In this document: one piece after another, positions 53,392-64,000 of the stretch
How positions within the stretch are numbered: position 1 is the stretch's first letter
How the letters are laid out: each line of letters opens with the position of its first letter
NCBI GenBank assembly: GCA_963555755.3
Contig: OY820905.2
Span: forward strand, 704,001 to 768,000
DNA: 64,000 bases
DNA from: Nitrospirales bacterium
Lineage (GTDB): Bacteria > Nitrospirota > Nitrospiria > Nitrospirales > UBA8639
Direction: 5' to 3'
The notes under the pieces: generated by a model
Told to the model about the DNA's origin: nothing
Databases searched by the model: none
Seen by the model: only the letters and a program-made list of their open reading frames with translations
Made by a program: the position numbers and the translations under genes

Positions 53392-53409
53392 CCCCCGGGT
53401 GCCCAAACG

Positions 53410-55030
53410 ATGCCGGCGGCCCTTGGGACAGCGATTCCGTCAACGCGAGGTGGCGCGTGTCTCAAGCCTACTAGCCCCTCTCCAGCCAGTGACACTCCCG
53501 CTCCCTATGAACGCCGGCAGCCCGAAGAGACCACGCTCTACCAGGTCATCCAAGACCACCTCGACACCTTCCTGGCCCAAGTCGAACAGGAAACCGGGAC
53601 AGGTTTGCCCCAGTTTGTCAAAGATGAGTTCGAGGCATTTCTGGAAGGCGGCATCTGAGGGCTCGCGAAACAATACCTTCCCAGAATTCGCGCCCAGATT
53701 TGGGGCAGATTGAGTCGATCTGAGGGAGCAAAACCGCAGGCGTAGCAACGCCCACGTTGAGGATTTTGCGAGTGAAGATCGGCTCAAGATGGCCTGAAGC
53801 TGGGATGCGAAAATGGGAAGGTATTGTTTCGCGAGCCCTGAGCGCATGGGTTTCTGCGCCTGCGGTGTGGGGATTGCGCCCATGAAAAACTGGTGGCCTT
53901 CTCTTGTAAACGGCGAGGGTTTTGCCCGGCGTGTGGCGCCCGCCGCATGGCCGAGACTGCAGCCCATCTGGTTGAGCAGGTTATTCCTCACGTGCCGGTG
54001 CGCCAATGGGTGGTCTCGTTTCCCATCCCGCTGCGGCATCTGTTCGCCACCCAGCCGCACCTGCTTTCCCCGGTGTTGCAAGTCATTCACCGCGCCCTCT
54101 CGACCTTCGTGATCCACCAAGCCGGCTTGACCCATGCCCAGGCGCAAACCGGCGCGGTGCCCCTCATCCAACGCTTTGGCTCCGCCGCGAATCTCAATAT
54201 TCATCTCCATTGCCTCATGCTCGATGGCGTCTATCGCCTCACCGACGGGGTCCCCATCTTCCAGGCCATCCCGGCCCCCACCACCGAGCAACTGCAGACC
54301 GTCCTCACGCGGATCATCACACGGCTGCTGAAGGCCTTAACGCGCCACGGTGCGCTCACGGAGGAAGACACCGAGATTCCGTATCTGACCGACCCCGATG
54401 CCGATCCCGCCTTGGCGCCGCTGCAGGCGGCCGCCTGCACCTACCGCATTGCCCTTGGCCCCCGAGCCGGCCAAAAAGTGCTGCCGTGGAAAGACCCGTC
54501 GTTGCGCCTCGCGAGCCCAGACATGCCGCAATCCCAGGGGTGTGTCAGTGCGCAAGGGTTCAGTCTGCATGCGGACACATGGTGTGGTCCCCATCAGCGA
54601 CAAAAACTCGAACAGCGCTGTCGCGACATCACCCGTCCGGCCCTGGGCCATAAACGCCTGCGCCGTACACCAGCCGGCGAGGTCGTCCTCCAACTCAAAA
54701 CCCCGTACCGCGATGGCACCACCCATCTCGTGATGACCCCGCTGGAATTCCTGCAACGCCTGGCCGCCCTCGTCCCACGTCCCCGACTCCATCTCATTCG
54801 CTTCCATGGCGTGCTGGCGCCCAACGCGGCGCTACGCTCCCAGATCGTGCCCGGCGAGGCCGACCCGGCAACGGACACCGCCCATGAGGATGGCGATTCC
54901 CTCGCTCCTTCAACACGAGCCCACCTGAGTTGGGCGCAATTACTCAAACGCGTCTTCGCCATCGACCTCACCACCTGCCCGCAGTGCGGCGTGGCATTGA
55001 CGCTCCTGGCGGCTATCGAAGATCCCGCGG
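53410..55030 (+). pseudogene. IS91/ISCR-type rolling-circle transposase, copy 1, interrupted by a MITE
   Basis: FSCKRRGFCPAC, QRFGSAANLNIHLH (HUH), PRPRLHLIRFHGV. An oriIS-like remnant lies at 56116-56141. Confidence 0.88.
53659..53838. mobile_element. Hairpin MITE family B in IS91 copy 1 (same insertion in copy 2 at 58701-58880)
   Basis: IR GGGCTCGCGAAACAATACCTTCCC; TGA duplication. Confidence 0.88.
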
Positions 55031-55162
55031 GGTATTGTCAAGTTAAGTGAATTTGACCAAAAATTAGGCAATACACGAATTCATAACTCATTGATTATTC
55101 AGCATTCAGGTTCCTGCCCCGAGGTAGAAAATCAACCCACTTTGACTTAAGTTGACAATACC
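55031..55162. mobile_element. MITE with IS6-like ends
   Basis: GGTATTGTCAAGTTAAGT / ACTTAAGTTGACAATACC (1 mismatch). Confidence 0.7.
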
Positions 55163-56106
55163 GGGAAAACGCACAAGCAGATTGCTGAAGCACTTGGCCG
55201 ACACCCCTCGACACTCAGTCGAGAAATCAAACGGAATACATATGCGCAGTGTCATGTGTATACCTATCACTGGGCCAGGCAGGTCGTGAAACATCGAAAA
55301 CAAGATGCGAATCGACACAAGTCTCGCAAGCTCACGGATGAACACGCGCAATTGATCACGCAGCTCGTGCGGCAATACGTAAGCCCGGAGCAAATCAGCG
55401 GGTATCTCAAACACCATCAGGCTCTGAGCCTCAGTCACGAAACGATTTATCGGTTCATCTACAGTGATGTCACCCGAAAAGCGGAATTGAAGCCGTTTCT
55501 TCGTCAAGGGGGTCGCCAGCGCCGCACGCGATATGGCTCGGGAGCCCGCGCCTCCTGTATTCCCAATCGCATCTCGATCACGGAGCGCCCCCAAGAAGTA
55601 GAAAAGAAAGACCGCCTCGGGGACTGAGAATGTGATACGGTGATGGGGAAAGATCGAAAAAGCGTGCTGGTGACGGTGGTGGACCGAGCCTCATTGTCTA
55701 CGGTCTGCTCTTGAGTCTTGAGCCGTTCGCCCACGTGGTGAGTCACGCCATCATCCGAATCCTTCGCCCCTTCAAAGCGCGCCTGAAGACCCTCACCTTT
55801 GATCATGGATCAGAGTGTGTGAAGCATGAACGGATTGCCCGTGCCCTGGATGCGACTACCTATTTTGCCCATCCCTATTCATCCTGGGAGCGAGACATCA
55901 ATGAACACACCAACGGACTCCTTCGACAGTGTTTCCCGAAGCAACCGGATTTCAGGAAGATATCCTGGCAACAGGTGAATGAGGCCGTCGACCACCTCAA
56001 TAATCGTCCAAGAAAAACCCGCGGGTATCGAACCCCCAACCCACTATTCAACAATCACTTCGTCCCGCTTGTTGCGAGATCATTGCACTTGCTACTTGAA
56101 TTCAAG
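55163..56106 (+). pseudogene. Degenerate IS30-family transposase
   Basis: SPEQIS, SHETIY, TLTFDHG.E, FAHPYSSWER..NE.TNGLLR, LNNRPRK. Contains stops and frameshifts; IS30-like end TTGCACTT..TTGAATTCAAG. Confidence 0.88.
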
Positions 56107-56248
56107 CCCTTTTGTAAAGGCCTTTTAAAATTTCTATTCCCTCTCCTGACTGGCGAGGCACAATGACGGGTCTTTCCACGTCAGCTCTTTTTGTCCCGTT
56201 CGGGGTCCGAGCGCAATGCGGTAGGTGCAGGCCGCCGCAGGTCTTCTA

Positions 56249-56285
56249 TTGACAAAATTGTTATTTGTGGTCACAATGACTACAG
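56249..56285 (+). promoter_or_regulatory. TA promoter with palindromic operator
   Basis: TTGACA-17 nt-CACAAT overlapping the imperfect palindrome TGTGGTCACAATGACTACA. Confidence 0.55.
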
Positions 56286-56296
56286 GAGGAATTGCC

Positions 56297-56584
56297 ATGG
56301 ATAAAGTCGTTGGAGCAAGGGAATTAAAAACACGGTTGGGCAGTTACATTCAACAAGTCCGAAACGGAACGACGTTTGTCGTCACCGAACGAGGACAACC
56401 AGTGGCCGAGTTGCGCCCATTGACATTGAAGGGCACAAAAGAAGAAATTCGTTTGCGCGAATTAGTCGCCACTGGGAGGATTTCGCATGCCTCTTCTGAC
56501 TCGTTTCGACCCTTTAAACCTATTCGGATGAAAGGGAAACCGTTATCCAAGACCATTATTGAAGATCGAAAGGATCGACTGTGA
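56297..56584 (+). CDS. Phd/YefM-family antitoxin
   Basis: VGARELKTRL..Y...V..G...VVTERGQPVA; AGGAGG RBS. Confidence 0.88.
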   Translation: MDKVVGARELKTRLGSYIQQVRNGTTFVVTERGQPVAELRPLTLKGTKEEIRLRELVATGRISHASSDSFRPFKPIRMKGKPLSKTIIEDRKDRL

Positions 56585-57006
56585 CACGGTATTTCGACGC
56601 CAGCGCTCTGGCCAAACGATATGTACACGAAGCAGGCAGCCAACAGATGACACGGCTCTTGGCCCAAAGCCATCCTGCCACCAGTCGCTTCACAGAGGTT
56701 GAGGTAGCGTCCGCGTTGGCCAGACGCGCACGAGAAGGCTCGTTGACCTTACGAGAACGTGATCGTGCGCTCGCCGCATTGCAACAGGATATGGCAACAT
56801 TTTATGTTGTCGAAATGATTTCTGAAGTAACCGATCAAGCTGTGGCGATACTCACACGACATCGATTACGCGCTCCGGATGCCATCCAACTGGCCTCTAC
56901 CCTTTACTTACAGAAACACTTGCCAGACCAACTTGAACTGGTTGCATTCGATCAGCAACTCCTCGATATTGCGGATCGTGAAGGGATAAGAGTTTGGGAG
57001 GCGTGA
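56581..57006 (+). CDS. vapC: VapC PIN-domain toxin
   Basis: YFDASALAKRY..E.GS, EV.SAL, LRAPDAIQLAS, FD..L. Confidence 0.88.
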   Translation: MTRYFDASALAKRYVHEAGSQQMTRLLAQSHPATSRFTEVEVASALARRAREGSLTLRERDRALAALQQDMATFYVVEMISEVTDQAVAILTRHRLRAPDAIQLASTLYLQKHLPDQLELVAFDQQLLDIADREGIRVWEA

Positions 57007-57050
57007 TTTTCCTTAGAAAAATTAGAAGTGCTACTAACTAATGCGAAACG

Positions 57051-57507
57051 CTGAGTATCCCCGATATCCGCATACGTTTCCCCAAAAAACCCCATCTCCG
57101 ATCCTTGAGCACAGGGAAGGTGCAGCCCGGCTCGAACCATAAGGCTGTACAGACCGAGAACTTTCAGATTGACGGTTTTCCCACCCGTATTCGGACCGGA
57201 AATCACCAAAATATTTTGATCTTTTTCAAAAAAGATGTCATTGGGAATCACGGTGCTGCGAGCAAGCATCAATAAAGGGTGCCGTGCCTTGGACAAACGA
57301 ATATGCCCATCCTCCGATAGTTGCACAGGATGCGCCTGCAGACGTTGGCTCAAACGCGCCTTCGCCCCAATGCTGTCCAAAATCGTGAGCACCTTCAGAT
57401 ACTGTTGAATCGTCGGAATATGCTCAACAATCATCGAACTCAGCACAGCAAGGATTCGATGAATTTCTCGAGCCACCGCCAACTCCCCGACCTTGATACG
57501 ATTATTG
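57051..57507 (-). pseudogene. Internal mutS2 fragment, a duplicate of 50437-50893
   Basis: 457-bp colinear copy with about 14 substitutions counted by eye. Confidence 0.93.
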
Positions 57508-57595
57508 TAAAGGGGTCATAAAGGGGTCATAAAGGGGTCAAATCTTTGGTTGAGTAAAGGGGTCAAATCTTTGGTTGAGAGTTTCAGATGGAACG
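57508..57595 (+). repeat. Ladder of truncated copies of the HUH element left end (11, 11, 25 and 41 bp)
   Basis: Each unit starts TAAAGGGGTCA and is an exact prefix of the sequence starting at 57596. Confidence 0.93.
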
Positions 57596-58616
57596 TAAAG
57601 GGGTCAAATCTTTGGTTGAGAGTTTCAGATGGAACGAGGTAGACTCTCGGGATGGCACGACCTCTCCGCATAGAGTATCCGGGCGCGGTCTATCATGTGA
57701 TGAACCGCGGTCTGGCGCGGCAAGCCGTGTTCCGCGATCCCACCGATTATGAGACCTTTCTCCAGGTGTTGAGTGACACCCATGCGCTGTGGGGTGTCGA
57801 GGTGTTCGCTTATTGTCTGATGGGGAATCATTATCATCTTTGCCTCCGCACGCCAACCGCCAATTTAGGCCGCGTGATGCGCCATATAAATGGCCTCTAT
57901 ACGCAACGGTTTAATCGCGCGCATCGGCGAGATGGCCCCTTGTTTCGAGGGCGGTATAAAGCGATTGTCGTGGAAGCGGACGCGTATTTGGCTGACGTGA
58001 TCCGCTATATTCATCTCAATCCCGTACAGGCCAAGCTGGTTCAGACCCCGGAAGCCTACCGGTGGAGTAGCCATGCGCGGTATCTCACTCCCCGATCTGC
58101 CCCTCCCTGGCTGGGCGTTCGTGAAGTGTTGGCCAGTATTGGTCCACCCCGCGTCTTTCATGAGTTTGTGCTGTCGGGCAATGAGGACGCCTTGGAGGCC
58201 TTTTATGCCGCAGGTCGTCAAGTGCCGGTATTAGGCACGGAAGGGTTTGGGGCCTGGGTGCGGAAAAAGGTTCGGCGGCTCTCGGCGGAACATCCACGGT
58301 ATGAGCGAGTGAAGGTGCGGCCGTCGGTCCGGCAGGTGCTGCAGCGAGTCGCGACGGTTTTTCAGGTCAAGAGGGCGGCGTTACAGACCAGTCGGCGGGG
58401 GGAAACCAACGACGCGCGCAAGGTGGCGATGTATCTGGTGAAACGGCTCTGTGATCTGACGTTGCCCGAGACGGCCCGGGAGTTTGGCGTGACCAGTTAT
58501 GGGGCCGTCGGGTGGGCCTGTGCGCAGGTGCGGGCAAAACAAGATGCGGAGCCACGGTTCAAGAAGCGAGTGGAAGAGGTCGAGGCATTATTTAGTCAAC
58601 CAAAGATTTGACCCCT
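57596..58616 (+). mobile_element. Y1/RAYT-like HUH element with 21-bp terminal inverted repeats
   Basis: AGGGGTCAAATCTTTGGTTGA / TCAACCAAAGATTTGACCCCT. Confidence 0.85.
57652..58611 (+). CDS. Y1 (RAYT-like) HUH transposase with a DnaA-C-like HTH tail
   Basis: MARPLRI, YHVMNRG, LMGNHYHL, LFRGRYK, YIHLNP, RWSS, ARKVAMYL. Confidence 0.9.
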   Translation: MARPLRIEYPGAVYHVMNRGLARQAVFRDPTDYETFLQVLSDTHALWGVEVFAYCLMGNHYHLCLRTPTANLGRVMRHINGLYTQRFNRAHRRDGPLFRGRYKAIVVEADAYLADVIRYIHLNPVQAKLVQTPEAYRWSSHARYLTPRSAPPWLGVREVLASIGPPRVFHEFVLSGNEDALEAFYAAGRQVPVLGTEGFGAWVRKKVRRLSAEHPRYERVKVRPSVRQVLQRVATVFQVKRAALQTSRRGETNDARKVAMYLVKRLCDLTLPETAREFGVTSYGAVGWACAQVRAKQDAEPRFKKRVEEVEALFSQPKI

Positions 58617-58619
58617 ATT

Positions 58620-60405
58620 CAAGTCGAACAGGAAACGGGGTCGGGGCTGCCTCAGTTTGTCAAAGACGAGTTCGAGGCATTTCTGGAAGGCGGGATCTGA
58701 GGGCTCGCGAAACAATACCTTCCCAGAATTCGCGCCCAGATTTGGGGCAGATTGAGTCGATCTGAGGGAGCAAAACCGCAGGCGTCGCAACGCCCACGTT
58801 GAGGATTGTGCGAGTGAAGATCGGCTCAAGATGGCCTGAAGCTAGGATGCGAAAAGGGGAAGGTATTGTTTCGCGAGCCCTGAGCGCACGGGTTTCTGCG
58901 CCTGCGATGTGGGGACTGCGCCCATGAGAAGCTGGTGGCCTTCTCCTGTAAACGCCGCGGGTTTTGCCCGGGGCCTGTGGCGCCAGACGCATGGCCGAGA
59001 CTGCCGCCCATCTGGGGGAGCAGGTGATCCCTCACGTGCCCGTGCGCCAATGGGTGGTCTCGTGTCCTATCCCCTTGCGGCATCTGTTCGCGACCCAGCC
59101 GCAGCGGCGTTCCCCGGTGTTGCAGGTCATCCACCGCGCCCTCTCGACCTTCGTGATCCACCAAGCCGGCTTGACCCATGCCCAGGCCCAGACCGGCGCG
59201 GTGACCCTCATCCAACGCTTTGGCTCCGCCGCGAATCTCAACATTCATCTGCATTGCCTGATGCTCGATGGCGTCTATCATCTCACGGACGGGGTCCCGA
59301 TCTTCCAGGCCATCCCGGCCCCCACCACTGACCAGCTGCAGGCGTTACTCACGCGGATCATCACGCGCCTCCTAAAGGCCTTAACAGGCCACGGCGCACT
59401 CATGGCAGAAGACACCGAGATCCCATATCTGACCAACCCCGATGCCGATCCCGCCTTGGCCCCGCTGCAGGCAGCCGCCTGCACCTACCGCATTGCCCTT
59501 GGCCCCCGAGCGGGACAAAAAGTGCTGACATGGAAAGATCCGGCCGTGCGCCTGGCCAGTCAAGAGGCACCACAGCCAAAGGGCTGTGTGAGTGCCCAGG
59601 GATTTAGCCTGCATGCGGATACCTGGTGTGGACCTCATCAACGGCAGAAACTCGAACAGCTCTGTCGCGACACCACCCGTCCGGCCCTGGGCCATAAACG
59701 CCTGCGCCGCACCCCGGCCGGCGAGGTCGTGTTGCAACTCAAAACGCCCTACCGCGATGGCACCACCCATCTCGTGATGACCCCGCTGGAATTCCTCCAA
59801 CGCTTGGCCGCGCTCGTCCCGCGTCCCCGGCTGCATCTCATTCGCTTCCATGGGGTGCTGGCCCCCAACGCGGCGCTGCGGTCCCAAATCGTCCCCGGTG
59901 AGCCCGACCAGGTGCCGAACACCACCGAGGGGAACGACGATTCCCTCTCTGCCTCCACACGGGCTCGTATGAGCTGGGCCCAATGACTCAAACGCGTCTT
60001 CGCCATCGACCTCACCACCTGTCCACAATGCGGCGGGCCATTGACCATCCTCGCGGCGCTCGAAGATCCCACCGTGATCATCAAGATTCTGGGCCACCTG
60101 GGCCTACCCCGCCGCGCCCCACCACGCGCCCCAGCCCGCCTCGACGCATTCATGCAAACAGCCTAATCCCTCCCCGGATTCCGGTTCGGTACCCGAACCG
60201 ACACTCCCCCTTTGCCCGTTTCCACCCTACACGCCACGAGCAAGCAACAGATTTGGCATAATCCCTGGCAAAAGGGCCAGGAAGCCCCGACTCACCGGAT
60301 GCACTCCCGCCTTTCAGACGGCGAAGTGTGCGGATGGACCCCTCACCGCGTTCTTTGGTACGTTGCGGTCTAGTCAAAAAGGCCTTTTGAATTTCCTATT
60401 CCCCG
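58620..60405 (+). mobile_element. IS91/ISCR-type element, copy 2: 5'-truncated, frameshifted, MITE-containing
   Basis: Homologous to 53578 onward, with an internal stop at 59984-59986. Ends in oriIS-like AAAGGCCTTTTGAATTTCCTATTCC. Confidence 0.88.
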
Positions 60406-60711
60406 TTACGGGTTTAATTTGATGATCTATTGAAGCTGGAATTTCAAGGGACGATGATAAGTAAGGAGAAGTCCGTTTAACAAAGTTCGAGGGTTGAAAT
60501 TTTCCTCCCAAAAGGGCTTGCCTATACAGAAAAATGGACATATGCTAATAGAGTCATATTCAAATAAAATTTTAGGTCGCAAAAGATGGAAAATCCCAAT
60601 TGAATCGGGTTGAACACGGCACATGGGGATTATTTGAGGCCAGGAGCGAAGCTGGTCGGAATGTTTACTCTCATCCGAAATAAAAAACTGTCGTTAATGG
60701 AGAACAAGAAT

Positions 60712-61211
60712 ATGTTGAATTCGAAAAAAATCGCCATCACGCTCCTGGCGCTTCTGGGATCTTTGCCGTTGCCGGGCCAGCCACGGCGACAGAGTTTGAT
60801 CTCAAGGTATACAACAAGACTCAGGAGAAGACTGACACGGACAAGGGGACGAAAATCATGCTGTCACTCTACGATTACAGTAAAAAGAATGGTCGCGGGG
60901 GCCTAATTAAAAGCAGGATCGTCGATCCGGGGAAAATGCAAAAATTCATTATAAGCACCTCAGACTGCGACAAGAGAAAGCACAAGGTATTCACGATCAA
61001 AAGAGCCGATTCTGACGGCAACGCCGGTCAACAGATCGCTAGTAGCATTATCATGATGAGGACCGGCAGCTGCAGGAGAGCCAATAAGACGTACGAAGAA
61101 TTCACGGACGTCCAAAATGACGCCTTCGGACTCCGGAAAGAAAATTTGAGCGGCGGCCAGTACCGCGTCAACGTCAGATGCTTGACTGCGGGTAGTTGCG
61201 AACAACAATGA
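60712..61211 (+). pseudogene. Secreted paralog unit 1 (1-bp deletion in the signal peptide)
   Basis: CTGGGATCTTT versus GTGGGGATCTTT in its sisters. The shifted frame joins ORF 60858-61211, which ends CLTAGSCEQQ. Confidence 0.85.
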
Positions 61212-61326
61212 TGGCATTCAGGAAGTTGAGCATGGTACATGGGGATTATTTGGGGCCAGGCCCAAGCCAGTAAGAAGCCTTACTCTTATCCGAAATAAAA
61301 AACTATGATTAATGGAGAACAAGAAT

Positions 61327-61860
61327 ATGTTGAATTCTAAAAAAATCGCCATCGCGTTGCTAGCCCTGGTGGGGATCTTTGTTGTTGCCGGGCCAGCTAC
61401 GGCGGATACGAATACGGTGTTTTCTCTCAAGGTGTTCAACAAGACTGAGAAGAAGGCTGACGCGGACAAGGGGACGAAAATCTTGCTATCACTCTACGAT
61501 TACAATAATAAAAAACGGGGCAGCCTTCAGGACCACAGGATCATCAACCCGGGGGAAATGACCAACATCGATTTTAAATTCTCCAGCTGCTACAAGACCA
61601 AGCACCGGGAGTTCGTGATCAATACAGTCGATAGCAACAACAAAGTCCTCCGTGAGATCGCTTACAGCAGGATCAGGATGCAGATCAAGGATGGTTGCTT
61701 TGCTAGCGAAGTAGAGTTCCAGGACTTCACAGATATCCCAGGTGACAACTTCAAGTTGACTAAGGACAGATCTAATGGTCTCAGGTTCAAAGTCTACGTC
61801 AAATGCGAGAGTGCAGGTAGTTGCGAACAACAAAAGGGGGACGGTTCTAACATAGAGTAG
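61327..61860 (+). CDS. Secreted paralog unit 2
   Basis: GGAG RBS, signal peptide MLNSKKIAIALLALVG..PATA, C-terminal CESAGSC. Confidence 0.88.
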   Translation: MLNSKKIAIALLALVGIFVVAGPATADTNTVFSLKVFNKTEKKADADKGTKILLSLYDYNNKKRGSLQDHRIINPGEMTNIDFKFSSCYKTKHREFVINTVDSNNKVLREIAYSRIRMQIKDGCFASEVEFQDFTDIPGDNFKLTKDRSNGLRFKVYVKCESAGSCEQQKGDGSNIE

Positions 61861-62053
61861 CCTCCTACGGGCCTGGGAAAATAGGGGAAGTAGCCTTTAC
61901 GGAGCAGGTAGCCTCGACAGGGTAGTCTTCTCCAGATTTCATCCAGGAAGTTAAGCATGGAACATGGGGATTGTTGGGTCCAGGCGCGAAGCGGGTGGCA
62001 ATGTTTACTCTAACCCAAAATAACAAACCATCAATAAACAGGAGAACAAAAAG

Positions 62054-62569
62054 ATGATAAATTCTAAAAAAATCGCCATCGCGTTGCTGGCCCTTGTAGG
62101 GATCTGTTTTGTTGCCGGGCCAGCCATGGCGAGTGAAACGTATTATCTCTATGTGTACAACAAAACTGATAATCGGATGAAACAATACAAAGGGACGAAA
62201 ATCAGCGTGTCAGTCTACCATGTCAAAAATAGTGTAAAGGGTTCCCTTAAGGCAACAAAGGAAATTCCAATAAAGGGAATTGCAACAGGAATAGGAACGT
62301 TCAAGTTTGGCTCCGGCGGTTGCACCGGAACCAAGCACCGGTTGTTTGAGATCAAAACAATCGACAAGGCCGGCATCGTCGGCCCTCTGATCGCTAGCAG
62401 CAGGCTCAGGATGAAGAACACGTCGTGCGTGACTGATCCCGAAATAGAGTTCCAGGGCTTCGTTGACGAATCAAATGACAACTTCAATATCACTAAAGAA
62501 AAAAGGTATAAAAACAAGTTCTACGTCTACGTCAACTGCAATGGTGCGGGTAATTGCGAAAGACAATGA
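62054..62569 (+). CDS. Secreted paralog unit 3
   Basis: Same signal peptide and motifs; CNGAGNC. Confidence 0.88.
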   Translation: MINSKKIAIALLALVGICFVAGPAMASETYYLYVYNKTDNRMKQYKGTKISVSVYHVKNSVKGSLKATKEIPIKGIATGIGTFKFGSGGCTGTKHRLFEIKTIDKAGIVGPLIASSRLRMKNTSCVTDPEIEFQGFVDESNDNFNITKEKRYKNKFYVYVNCNGAGNCERQ

Positions 62570-62740
62570 GGGTAAATTACGAACTCTACGGATCAGGAAA
62601 CGAGAGTAGGTGGCAGACAGCCTCGACAGGGCAGTTTTCTCTAGATTTCATTCAGTAAGTTGAGCATGGCACATGGGGCTGACAGGAATGTTCACTCTGC
62701 CCCGAAATAACAAACTAGCAATAAACGGGAGAACAAGAAG

Positions 62741-63247
62741 ATGATAAATTCGAAAAAAATCGCCATCGCGCTACTGGTGGCCCTGGTGGGGACCTTTGCT
62801 GTTGCCGCGCCAGCCATAGCTATGAAGTTTAAACTCTATGTGTACAACAATACTGGTGAGAAGGCGGACAAGGACGAAGGGACGAAAATCCAGGTGTCAA
62901 TCTACAAATACAGCAATGGCAAAATTGGCAGCCTTAAGGAAACCATGATAATTTCACCCAAGGTAAATGAAGCAACTGGAATAGGAAAGTTCATTTTTAA
63001 TACCGCGATCGGCAACACTCAGCACCGGAGGTACCTGATCAAAACAGTCGACAACGATGGCAAAATCGGCAAAGCGATCGGGAGTGGTAGGGTCATGATG
63101 AGGGTCAAAACCAGTTCTAGCAAATTAAAGCTCGAGGACATCGTGGACTTCAAGAATGACAATTTCACTACTACTACAAATATAAAGTTTAGAGACAGTA
63201 TCTATGTCTACGTCACGTGCAATAAAGCGGGCGTTTGCGAAGACTAA
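62741..63247 (+). CDS. Secreted paralog unit 4
   Basis: Same signal peptide and motifs; CNKAGVC. Confidence 0.88.
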   Translation: MINSKKIAIALLVALVGTFAVAAPAIAMKFKLYVYNNTGEKADKDEGTKIQVSIYKYSNGKIGSLKETMIISPKVNEATGIGKFIFNTAIGNTQHRRYLIKTVDNDGKIGKAIGSGRVMMRVKTSSSKLKLEDIVDFKNDNFTTTTNIKFRDSIYVYVTCNKAGVCED

Positions 63248-63446
63248 GGCAGTTGGTTCGGCCCCTGGAAATCCAGTTGAAATATTGACCGGGAAAAAAG
63301 GGCAACGCCCTTTACGGAGCAAATAGTCTCGACAGGGCAGTTTTCTCCAGATTTCATCCAGGAAGTTGAGCATGGCACATGGGGCTGACAGGAATGTTCA
63401 CTCTGCCCCGAAATAACAACCCATCAATAAACGGGAGAACAAGAAG

Positions 63447-63699
63447 ATGATGCATTCGAAAAAAATCGCCATCGCGCTCCTGGCCCTGGTGGGGATCTTT
63501 GCTGTTGCCGCGCCAGCCATGGCGTCAACACTTAAACTCAGGGTGTACAACAAAACTAATGAAGCGGTGGGCGATGACGGGACGAAAATCAAGGTGTGGG
63601 TCTTCAAATACGATAATGGCCGGCGCGACTTGCAGAAAAGTCAGATCGCCAAACCGGGAGAAAAGAGCAAATTCAAATTTAATTTCACCGACTGTTACA
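63447..63699 (+). pseudogene. Secreted paralog unit 5, truncated by IS256
   Basis: Homology stops after TDCY at the IS end. Confidence 0.85.
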
Positions 63700-64000
63700 G
63701 AGCTATTGTCAAATCTAGTGTCTGAAGCGTTACTCACGCGGCGACCGGGTCCGTGGTTGTCTGTTCGATTCCATCGATAAATTGAATGTCCGCAACGACT
63801 TTGGGCAACTCTCGGAATCCTCGCAAGCGCCTCCATGTTTTCTCTGCGCATTGACCTAACTTGAACATCCTGTGCAATATGCCATCTCGCGTGAGACATC
63901 CCTTTGTGCGGATCGTCCGATGCCGAATCGTTCCAAAGGTCGATTCTCGATGGGATTGGTGGTCCGGAGACTCGGCCAATGGGCAGCCGGAAACGTATAG
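63700..64000 (-). mobile_element. IS256-family element, right end and transposase C-terminus
   Basis: ESTFGTIRHRT..TKGC, AEKTWRRLRG...F.DG; end sequence GAGCTATTGTCAA. Confidence 0.8.

Follow-up and report, generated by a model that had tools for sequence, protein, structure and literature searches.

Why would a bacterium carry in a row five related genes for secreted proteins, with leaders and signal peptides that are almost constant and mature domains that have moved far apart? This question is raised by an array near the right end of a 64,000-nucleotide stretch from a Nitrospirales bacterium (the window, C1:704001-768000 of genome G000, which comprises two contigs and 4.62 Mb and is 99% complete). 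The answer we prefer, with a probability of about 0.42, is that the array is a tandem repertoire of signal-peptide proteins with an aegerolysin-type fold, which would be exported via a rare lone lipo-secretin and bind lipids or glycans on other cells, their surfaces diversifying.

Architecture of the array

The array consists of five units that stand head to tail on the forward strand between the end of an insertion sequence (IS) near 60403 and another IS at 63700. The leader motif starts at 60609, 61225, 61950, 62659 and 63365, which gives spacings of 616, 725, 709 and 706 nt. In pairwise comparison, the unit proteins are 35-61% identical over the aligned part, with E values down to 1e-38 in tblastn of the genome, which is far beyond chance. 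At DNA level, the identity among units is 0.74-0.98 in the leader and 0.80-0.91 in the signal region, and drops to 0.51-0.73 in the mature region. That is, the earlier sequence-only reading, which proposed at least five head-to-tail secreted paralogs with constant leader and signal peptide but variable mature domain, holds on both counts. The features of the array are as follows.

60609..60711, +, unit 1 leader, from the GTTRRRY-containing motif to the ribosome-binding site
60694..60722, +, 29-nt segment identical to 61309-61337; contigs of sample S3 break here, as a deletion of unit 1 would cause
60712..61211, +, unit 1 gene, frameshifted near 60756-60760 in the signal-peptide region; its mature-domain frame (60789-61211) is open
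61225..61326, +, unit 2 leader
61327..61860, +, unit 2 gene, intact, 177 aa, Sec-type signal, 4 Cys; the protein that was modelled
61950..62053, +, unit 3 leader
62054..62569, +, unit 3 gene, intact, 171 aa
62613..62740, +, unit 4 spacer and leader, 93% identical to the unit 5 counterpart over 165 nt, with 57 nt exact
62741..63247, +, unit 4 gene, intact, 168 aa, without the inner Cys pair
63319..63446, +, unit 5 spacer and leader
63447..63699, +, unit 5 gene, truncated and mosaic: 5' part like unit 4, then like units 1 and 2
63700..64000, −, end of the multi-copy IS that truncates unit 5, without target duplication

The mature domains (140-151 aa) are Lys-rich, as had been proposed, with Lys making up 11-13% of their residues; the isoelectric point (pI) is 8.8-9.5 in units 1-4, and exceeds 7 in 16 of 19 members of the wider family described below. 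The conserved skeleton that was read from the sequence is right overall, but shows small variants: KHK and DAF in unit 1, QHR in unit 4, and MMHS in the signal of unit 5. The frameshift of unit 1 is genuine. Short-read contigs of four runs (X1, X4, X7 and X6) read through it without any difference or gap, so it is not an assembly error. Unit 5 is indeed cut by an IS at 63700, presumably of the IS256 type. Of three other copies of this IS that were checked, two are flanked by 8-bp target duplications; none is present at the copy cutting unit 5, and the remainder of the unit has therefore been lost. Its second half is found nowhere in the genome. The suspicion that the array runs on past the window has to be given up, as genome-wide profile searches returned six family matches, namely the five units and one solo paralogue at C1:493k (L007:1465-1947), which is distant (27% identity to unit 2) and lies between IS remnants. 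Overall, it is virtually certain that tandem duplication produced five units with conserved leader and signal, of which IS activity and a frameshift removed two.

Could the units be integron gene cassettes? The motif GTTRRRY does stand in register in all five leaders, and the genome carries an integron integrase. However, the inverse core RYYYAAC is absent within 160 nt upstream in four of the five units, none of 20 folds gave a hairpin (lowest z -1.7), the stop codon of unit 1 is followed by the next motif after only 13 nt, and the only over-cutoff hit for TIGR02249 lies at C1:319k, ~445 kb away from the array at C1:764-768k. Judged on its sequence, the leader is not an attC site. With no inverse core in four units, no hairpin and a distant integrase, the cassette-like character in the integron sense is not supported, and we regard this explanation as hardly tenable. 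Concerning other signals in the non-coding parts, scans for promoters and terminators gave counts at shuffle level (4 vs 4.7 and 5 vs 3.8), a candidate -35/-10 pair at 60518-60546, picked by eye, scores just 8 of 12, and an Rfam search with the leader matched no family.

Pattern tests (not SignalP) were applied to 19 members of the family. The N-terminus is hydrophobic in all 19 and followed by an AxA site in 17, while a lipobox and a Tat motif are each found in 0 of 19; no type IV pilin leader is visible in the family. The array proteins are thus predicted to be Sec-exported. Most members keep two Cys pairs, and this conservation suggests disulfides.

The family itself is very small. When 1.84 billion representatives were searched exhaustively with a profile, 19 hits were returned, of which 15 were kept (4 of these from G000) and P0013, P0018, P0019 and P0020 were dropped as long or repetitive (P0019 not inspected); with the extra members from further searches, the family totals ~20 in public data. 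No Pfam hit over the cut-off was obtained for the five array proteins or for 21 family members, and no PDB sequence hits the family. Searches in plasmids and phages (by tblastn) and in viral contigs yielded nothing usable, and pattern scans of metagenomes and genomes with the array alignment returned no relative. Two candidates were rejected. The single match among 60 close relatives (E 3e-4) proved spurious, being a gene of Skp/OmpH type (named by eye) within an operon for outer-membrane biogenesis, and the one scan hit for P0002 (L008) sits over an unrelated repeat protein.

Divergence, selection and recombination

We have calculated the ratio of non-synonymous to synonymous substitution rates (dN/dS) between units 1-4. 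The ratio is 0.27-0.72 for the signal region and 0.88-1.49 for the mature region, at a synonymous rate (dS) of 0.39-0.66 and with confidence intervals that include 1. That is, the contrast between signal and mature regions which the sequence-only reading led one to expect is present, and uniformly purifying selection is not seen. Codon models were then fitted with our own implementation to four sequences of 135 codons. For the mature domains, model M0 gives a dN/dS of 1.19, and M2a improves on M1a with a likelihood-ratio test statistic (LRT) of 26.1, placing 35% of sites in a class with dN/dS ~5. M2a stays nominally significant (p<0.05) under all 12 settings of mask and codon frequency, and the LRT of 26.1 lies above all 112 null simulations (maximum 11.0 in 56 clonal and 14.4 in 56 mosaic ones). 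The 25 fast sites fall mostly outside the core: they occupy 23 of the 106 non-core columns, against 2 of the 29 core columns, although this comparison is partly circular.

The age of the DNA points in the same direction. The proportion of synonymous differences (pS) is 0.31-0.42 for the array pairs, against a median of 0.74 in 150 of 153 paralogous pairs of open reading frames (ORFs) with similar protein identity, a comparison set that includes shadow frames. Since pS is low at the given protein identity, the array proteins have diverged unusually fast for the age of their DNA. Taken together, these observations make it likely that the surfaces of the array proteins are diversifying under selection, and lend support to the earlier idea of a birth-and-death family of exported proteins. 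In the mechanism we propose, about a third of the mature-domain codons would probably evolve at a dN/dS near 5 on a fixed core.

On the other hand, the array might be horizontally acquired cargo that drifts under relaxed selection in an IS-rich genome, with neutrality behind the dN/dS near 1 and the secretin link reflecting no more than co-transfer on one mobile island. Consistent with this, two of five units are broken, M0 gives a dN/dS of ~0.9 once double-nucleotide changes are allowed, 10.6% of the chromosome consists of 31-mers with at least 3 copies, none of 400 further genomes from this phylum has the family, and the GC content is 46% vs 51%. But three frames are still open, with in-frame indels only, at dS 0.4-0.5; the signal region holds a dN/dS of ~0.3, core and Cys positions are kept, and M2a fits better than the neutral model. 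We therefore consider drift quite unlikely, and return to diversification under selection.

Recombination was examined in the units and in population samples. Up to the early mature region, unit 5 is like unit 4 at 40 of 50 informative sites, and afterwards at 10 of 35, where it becomes like unit 2 (permutation p=0.0005); a third triplet tested for mosaicism gave none (p=0.21). In sample S3, the contigs of two runs break exactly at the 29-nt segment common to units 1 and 2, a pattern that requires a k-mer joining the unit 1 leader to unit 2. As an internal control, an equally long 29-mer shared by units 2 and 3 breaks no contigs, and samples S1 and S2 show no break. The S3 breaks fit a minority deletion of unit 1 by recombination. 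Thus the suggestion that the array is shuffled through its constant segments gains support from both the unit 5 mosaic and the S3 contigs, and recombination in the leader and signal segments would quite probably generate mosaics and deletions. The variation spans the entire mature region of all units, which does not suggest the target of a diversity-generating retroelement.

Several further observations were made in the samples. In run X6, the unit 1 contig has a depth of 120, next to flanking values of 128 and 135. A variation in the copy number of unit 4 was considered and rejected, as the depth differences in X1, X4 and X7 are not reproduced in X6, which comes from the same sample as X7. 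X6 and X7 also contain a contig of 340 nt, about a quarter as deep as the array, with an extra leader and signal start that shows 13 differences from window positions 62659-62770. This contig continues into a motif that G000 has in four places and that is probably an IS end, and its upstream flank is not in G000, so a further broken unit exists in that sample. Among metatranscriptome contigs, one from X8 covers unit 2 (61318-61836) and pieces from X9 cover parts of units 3-5; the parts of units 2-4 are without differences, and DNA carry-over is possible.

Predicted fold of the mature domain

The sequence-only reading recognised no family and left the question to structure prediction. The AlphaFold model of unit 2, built from an alignment of 21 rows, is a beta-sandwich of nine strands with a mean predicted local distance difference test score (pLDDT) of 91.4. 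In a structural alignment against 48,161 chains, the top matches are OlyA (Z 10.3, root-mean-square deviation (rmsd) 3.3, 113 residues aligned), Cry34Ab1 (Z 10.1, rmsd 3.3, 108 aligned) and RahU (Z 9.4, rmsd 3.4, 115 aligned), followed by MoHrip2 (Z 9.2), the pilin FctB (8.9), a thaumatin-like xylanase inhibitor (8.8), SpaC (8.4) and actinoporins (8.3). NttC is matched at Z 7.9 (rmsd 3.0, 95 aligned). With Foldseek against PDB, all nine hits at E<=0.001 are aegerolysins, including OlyA, PlyA and AfIP-1A. The model thus predicts an aegerolysin-type sandwich where Pfam makes no confident assignment.

On this model, the array proteins use an aegerolysin-type scaffold, yet are not members of the aegerolysins, because they match no profile, are basic, carry a signal peptide and lack Trp in units 1-4, and no MACPF gene was found in the genome. 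The aegerolysin profile PF06355 matches neither the five array proteins (E<=1) nor the 21 members (E<=0.5); genome-wide in G000 it also gave no match, a search in which its positive control gave none either. Overall, Sec export followed by periplasmic folding with one or two disulfides into an aegerolysin-like sandwich would very probably describe the early life of these proteins, as predicted.

The same fold raises two other explanations. First, the proteins may be the membrane-targeting part of a two-part pore-forming toxin, diversified for different lipids, with the pore partner encoded elsewhere or lost. The top structural hits (OlyA, Cry34Ab1 and RahU; with Foldseek OlyA, PlyA and AfIP-1A) suit this role, and PlyA and Cry34Ab1 act with partner proteins according to PMC9505663. 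However, a MACPF profile search of the 99%-complete G000 gave no match while its positive control matched (partners of the Cry35 and aerolysin type were not searched), no partner-sized gene except the secretin and a kinase stands beside the family in G000 or in the two other records described below (G431 and G432), and the aegerolysin profile is not matched. A two-part toxin is therefore very unlikely.

Second, the proteins may be periplasmic immunity or inhibitor proteins against varied incoming toxins or enzymes. The thaumatin-like xylanase inhibitor (Z 8.8) is a structural match of this kind, and orphan immunity arrays, too, are tandem divergent paralogues with constant leaders. But no toxin gene adjoins any family locus examined, the secretin would be left unexplained, and the modelled fold favours ligand or membrane binding over an immunity role; we hold this explanation to be highly improbable. 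For the preferred repertoire of surface binders, there is an even chance that the proteins would bind a changing target, perhaps anionic lipids or glycans, on the surface of a host, predator or neighbour, as their fold and evolution suggest.

The stand-alone secretin and comparison with known systems

A contig scan with a distant subfamily reached two syntenic records, G431 and G432, with three family members each. In both, two tandem family genes stand directly upstream of a lone secretin (PF00263 + PF03958). The orthologue of this secretin in G000 (49% identity over 453 aa) lies at C1:1,805,897-1,807,318, intact, alone and beside IS elements; a second secretin paralogue in G000 is broken (3,535,057 / 3,542,809), split by a stack of mobile elements. 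The secretin subfamily is rare, with 38 proteins at E<=1e-60 among 7,997 candidates scored, and a secretin search in plasmids yielded nothing usable. Its N-terminal Cys is invariant in 27 of 27 aligned sequences, and a lipobox-like motif is present in 28 of 31.

We have further compared the occurrence of the two genes in sets of 401 genomes, which are centred on genomes chosen for having the family and in which some background genomes are incomplete. In this phylum, the family and the secretin subfamily each occur in 1 of 401 genomes, and it is the same genome; in the class of G431, again, each occurs in 1 of 401, the same one. That is, the secretin subfamily is present in both family-bearing lineages vs 0 of 800 background genomes. 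In addition, P0023, the secretin-adjacent member, groups with the array clade (support 93/91, in a tree drawn open). By ORF reading, no genes for type II or type III secretion, Tad or type IV pili lie beside the secretin at three loci (L028, L029 and L032), which therefore lack the canonical type II arrangement of a secretin clustered with ATPase, platform and pseudopilins. Two Tad clusters and one cluster of pilus/ExeA type (named by eye) lie elsewhere in G000. From neighbourhood and co-occurrence, it is on balance likely that the proteins would leave via the orphan secretin, with pilus or type II machinery encoded elsewhere, perhaps that of the pilus/ExeA-type cluster, as the probable driving force.

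Three side points concern these loci. The G432 record is titled Bifidobacteriaceae; it is syntenic with the Vicinamibacterales record G431 at 82-84% protein identity and has 70% GC at L029, and its label is probably wrong. In both genomes, the family pair and secretin are immediately preceded by a gene for a Ser/Thr kinase with a PD40 beta-propeller (L028:7405-10401 and L029:7493-10525). The idea that one IS separated array and secretin in G000 was rejected, as blastn gives no match between the elements flanking the array and those flanking the secretin.

The adjacency also suggests another role, in which the family proteins are structural partners of the secretin, either acting in the periplasm as its plugs or chaperones, or forming the subunits or tip of a fibre that is built through it at the surface, and vary to escape antibodies or phages that use them as receptors. 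In its favour, two different paralogues in a row directly adjoin the secretin, pilin domains score near the aegerolysins (FctB Z 8.9, SpaC Z 8.4), and the selected sites lie over strand faces and not in one pocket. Pilotins are lipoproteins. In the family, however, the lipobox is found in none of 19 members and no type IV pilin leader is visible, and the partner of one conserved secretin should itself be conserved, not show a dN/dS near 1. We consider a structural role unlikely.

Several results weigh against the preferred reading, i.e., an exported and diversifying repertoire of surface binders. As for the fold, a common fold shows no function, the TM-scores of Foldseek are just ~0.5, the aegerolysin matches have 8-9% identity and are almost tied with non-aegerolysins (MoHrip2, FctB and thaumatin-like proteins), and units 1-4, unlike aegerolysins, are basic and without Trp (by count in the sequences). 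As for selection, the test is informed by four sequences alone, and their first half by itself gives an LRT of 8; with double-nucleotide changes allowed, M0 falls to the ~0.9 given above and the LRT to 7.6-12.7, inside the null range for single changes; the null simulations exceed chi-square, hence the nominal p-values are too small; and 15 of the 25 putatively selected sites are in strands, spread and not clustered in loops. The junction k-mer in S3 could be a library chimera. None of the findings that would have contradicted a diversifying family was made outright, yet the unit sequences are identical across three samples. As for the secretin, that of G000 lies ~1.04 Mb from the array, the third member of G431 has no secretin among the ORFs listed at its locus (which was not profile-scanned), and G431 and G432 are one lineage, so the adjacency is directly seen once only; moreover, the longest-contig figure of 4,152 bases shared by P0004 (family) and P0033 (secretin), a further hint at the link, is just a length match.

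Beyond the array, G000 has other tandem groups that together encode a dozen or more orphan proteins, secreted and rich in Cys, and the array is therefore part of a larger repertoire. The cluster at C1:375-385k (L017:1983-11981) encodes ten small orphan proteins with signal peptides, which are rich in Lys and Cys and form two or more sets of paralogues (c2-c5 and c6-c8). The cluster is interrupted by a group II intron-like ORF, 0 of its 10 proteins have an over-cut-off Pfam hit, and one of them has a weak score against the array profile (E 0.2 genome-wide). Its c6 and c7 (L017:7938-8871) show the same pattern of constant ends and variable middle, with DNA 93-100% identical at both ends and 72-77% in the middle. 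For the part at C1:378-381k, the fold model has a pLDDT of 62 and no Foldseek match at E<=0.001, and no fold was assigned. More relatives lie at C1:372k, 1,011k, 2,966k and 3,547k. A tandem pair of secreted Cys-containing orphans with 59% identity and an unsaturated pS of 0.42 stands among IS elements at C1:1,020k (L018:5355-6615), and past the window, in the downstream IS field, C1:784,948-785,472 (-) encodes an orphan signal-peptide protein of 174 aa without a significant match to the array profile. Upstream of the array, window positions 53400-60403 hold what we take to be a toxin-antitoxin pair, a duplicated piece of a mutS2-like gene and a transposase stack, with presumed remnants of rolling-circle-type transposases and a REP-associated-type transposase with inverted ends. 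Integron integrase sequences lie at C1:319k, 325k and 332k, as one full copy and two fragments.

In the mechanism we propose, units would be gained by duplication, recombine with each other in their constant leaders and signals, change at exposed residues under selection, and be lost when an IS or a frameshift breaks them, so that the repertoire turns over. If this is true, the aegerolysin/actinoporin sandwich extends to a Sec-exported, disulfide-bonded and basic bacterial branch, the rare orphan secretin subfamily gains a candidate cargo, and effector-style evolution, in which the signal is fixed, the surface changes fast and the constant segments recombine, occurs in a bacterium whose gene content suggests a nitrifier lineage, a setting in which one would not expect such arsenals. 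As three natural variants of a single scaffold are intact, their binding target is directly testable. A bolder version, which we find doubtful, would have a new minimal secretion module, in which a lone lipo-secretin is devoted to a library of surface binders with the aegerolysin fold that recombines and is under positive selection. This module would move horizontally between phyla and here serve a larger arsenal of orphan secreted proteins with disulfide bonds, deployed against a eukaryotic partner or predator in an arms race, as a bacterial parallel of venom multigene families.

The family appears to be undescribed, and its link to the secretin would bring a known scaffold and a known pore class together in a new way, with effector-like evolution. 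In the openly available literature, searched at the level of titles and abstract starts, no description was found of the family or of a pairing of aegerolysin fold and secretin. The secretin subfamily shares with known stand-alone and lipo-secretins the Secretin and Secretin_N domains (PF00263 + PF03958) and the N-terminal Cys, but is distinct and rare.

Aegerolysins (PF06355, e.g., ostreolysin A, pleurotolysin A, Cry34Ab1, RahU and AfIP-1A) resemble the array proteins in being small all-beta sandwiches of similar size. They are generally without a classical signal peptide, and carry Trp at the lipid-binding tip. In PMC9505663, aegerolysins are of 15-20 kDa and low isoelectric point, of which the array mature domains share the size but not the pI; terrelysin is given there as having no classical signal peptide, whereas the array family has a hydrophobic N-terminus; and a patchy distribution with varying copy number is common to both groups. 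The array family further differs by its Sec signal peptide, conserved Cys pairs, secretin link, and dN/dS near or above 1. Actinoporins, thaumatin-like proteins, the C-terminal domain of DdCAD-1 and MoHrip2 belong to the same sandwich class (Z 7-9.2); they are secreted, and most have lipids, glycans or cell surfaces as their targets. The array family has no sequence similarity to them, and the unit 2 model is without the N-terminal pore helix.

In mode of evolution, the array recalls the conotoxin-like multigene families of eukaryotic effectors and venoms, which have a conserved signal and a hypervariable mature region. Common to both are the conserved leader and signal, a disulfide scaffold, an accelerated mature region, and tandem birth and death. 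The array, however, is bacterial, with a folded 140-aa domain and no propeptide, and the likeness is an analogy only.

By analogy, the closest functional precedent is NttC of Legionella pneumophila (PDB 6sjt), which PMC7325957 describes as a small disulfide-bonded signal-peptide beta-sandwich and a substrate of type II secretion, required for the infection of some amoebae by a mechanism not known. It came up as an Atlas hit to the family, with scores of 0.87 and 0.85 that count as a lead only, and the NttC family PF24268 gave no Pfam or PDB sequence match, although its presence in the Pfam copy used is uncertain. What the two have in common is a small signal-peptide sandwich with a disulfide that leaves, or in the array would leave, via a secretin system. 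NttC differs in being shorter, confined to Legionella as reported in PMC7325957, and served by a full type II system, where the array is a diversifying tandem set with a lone secretin.

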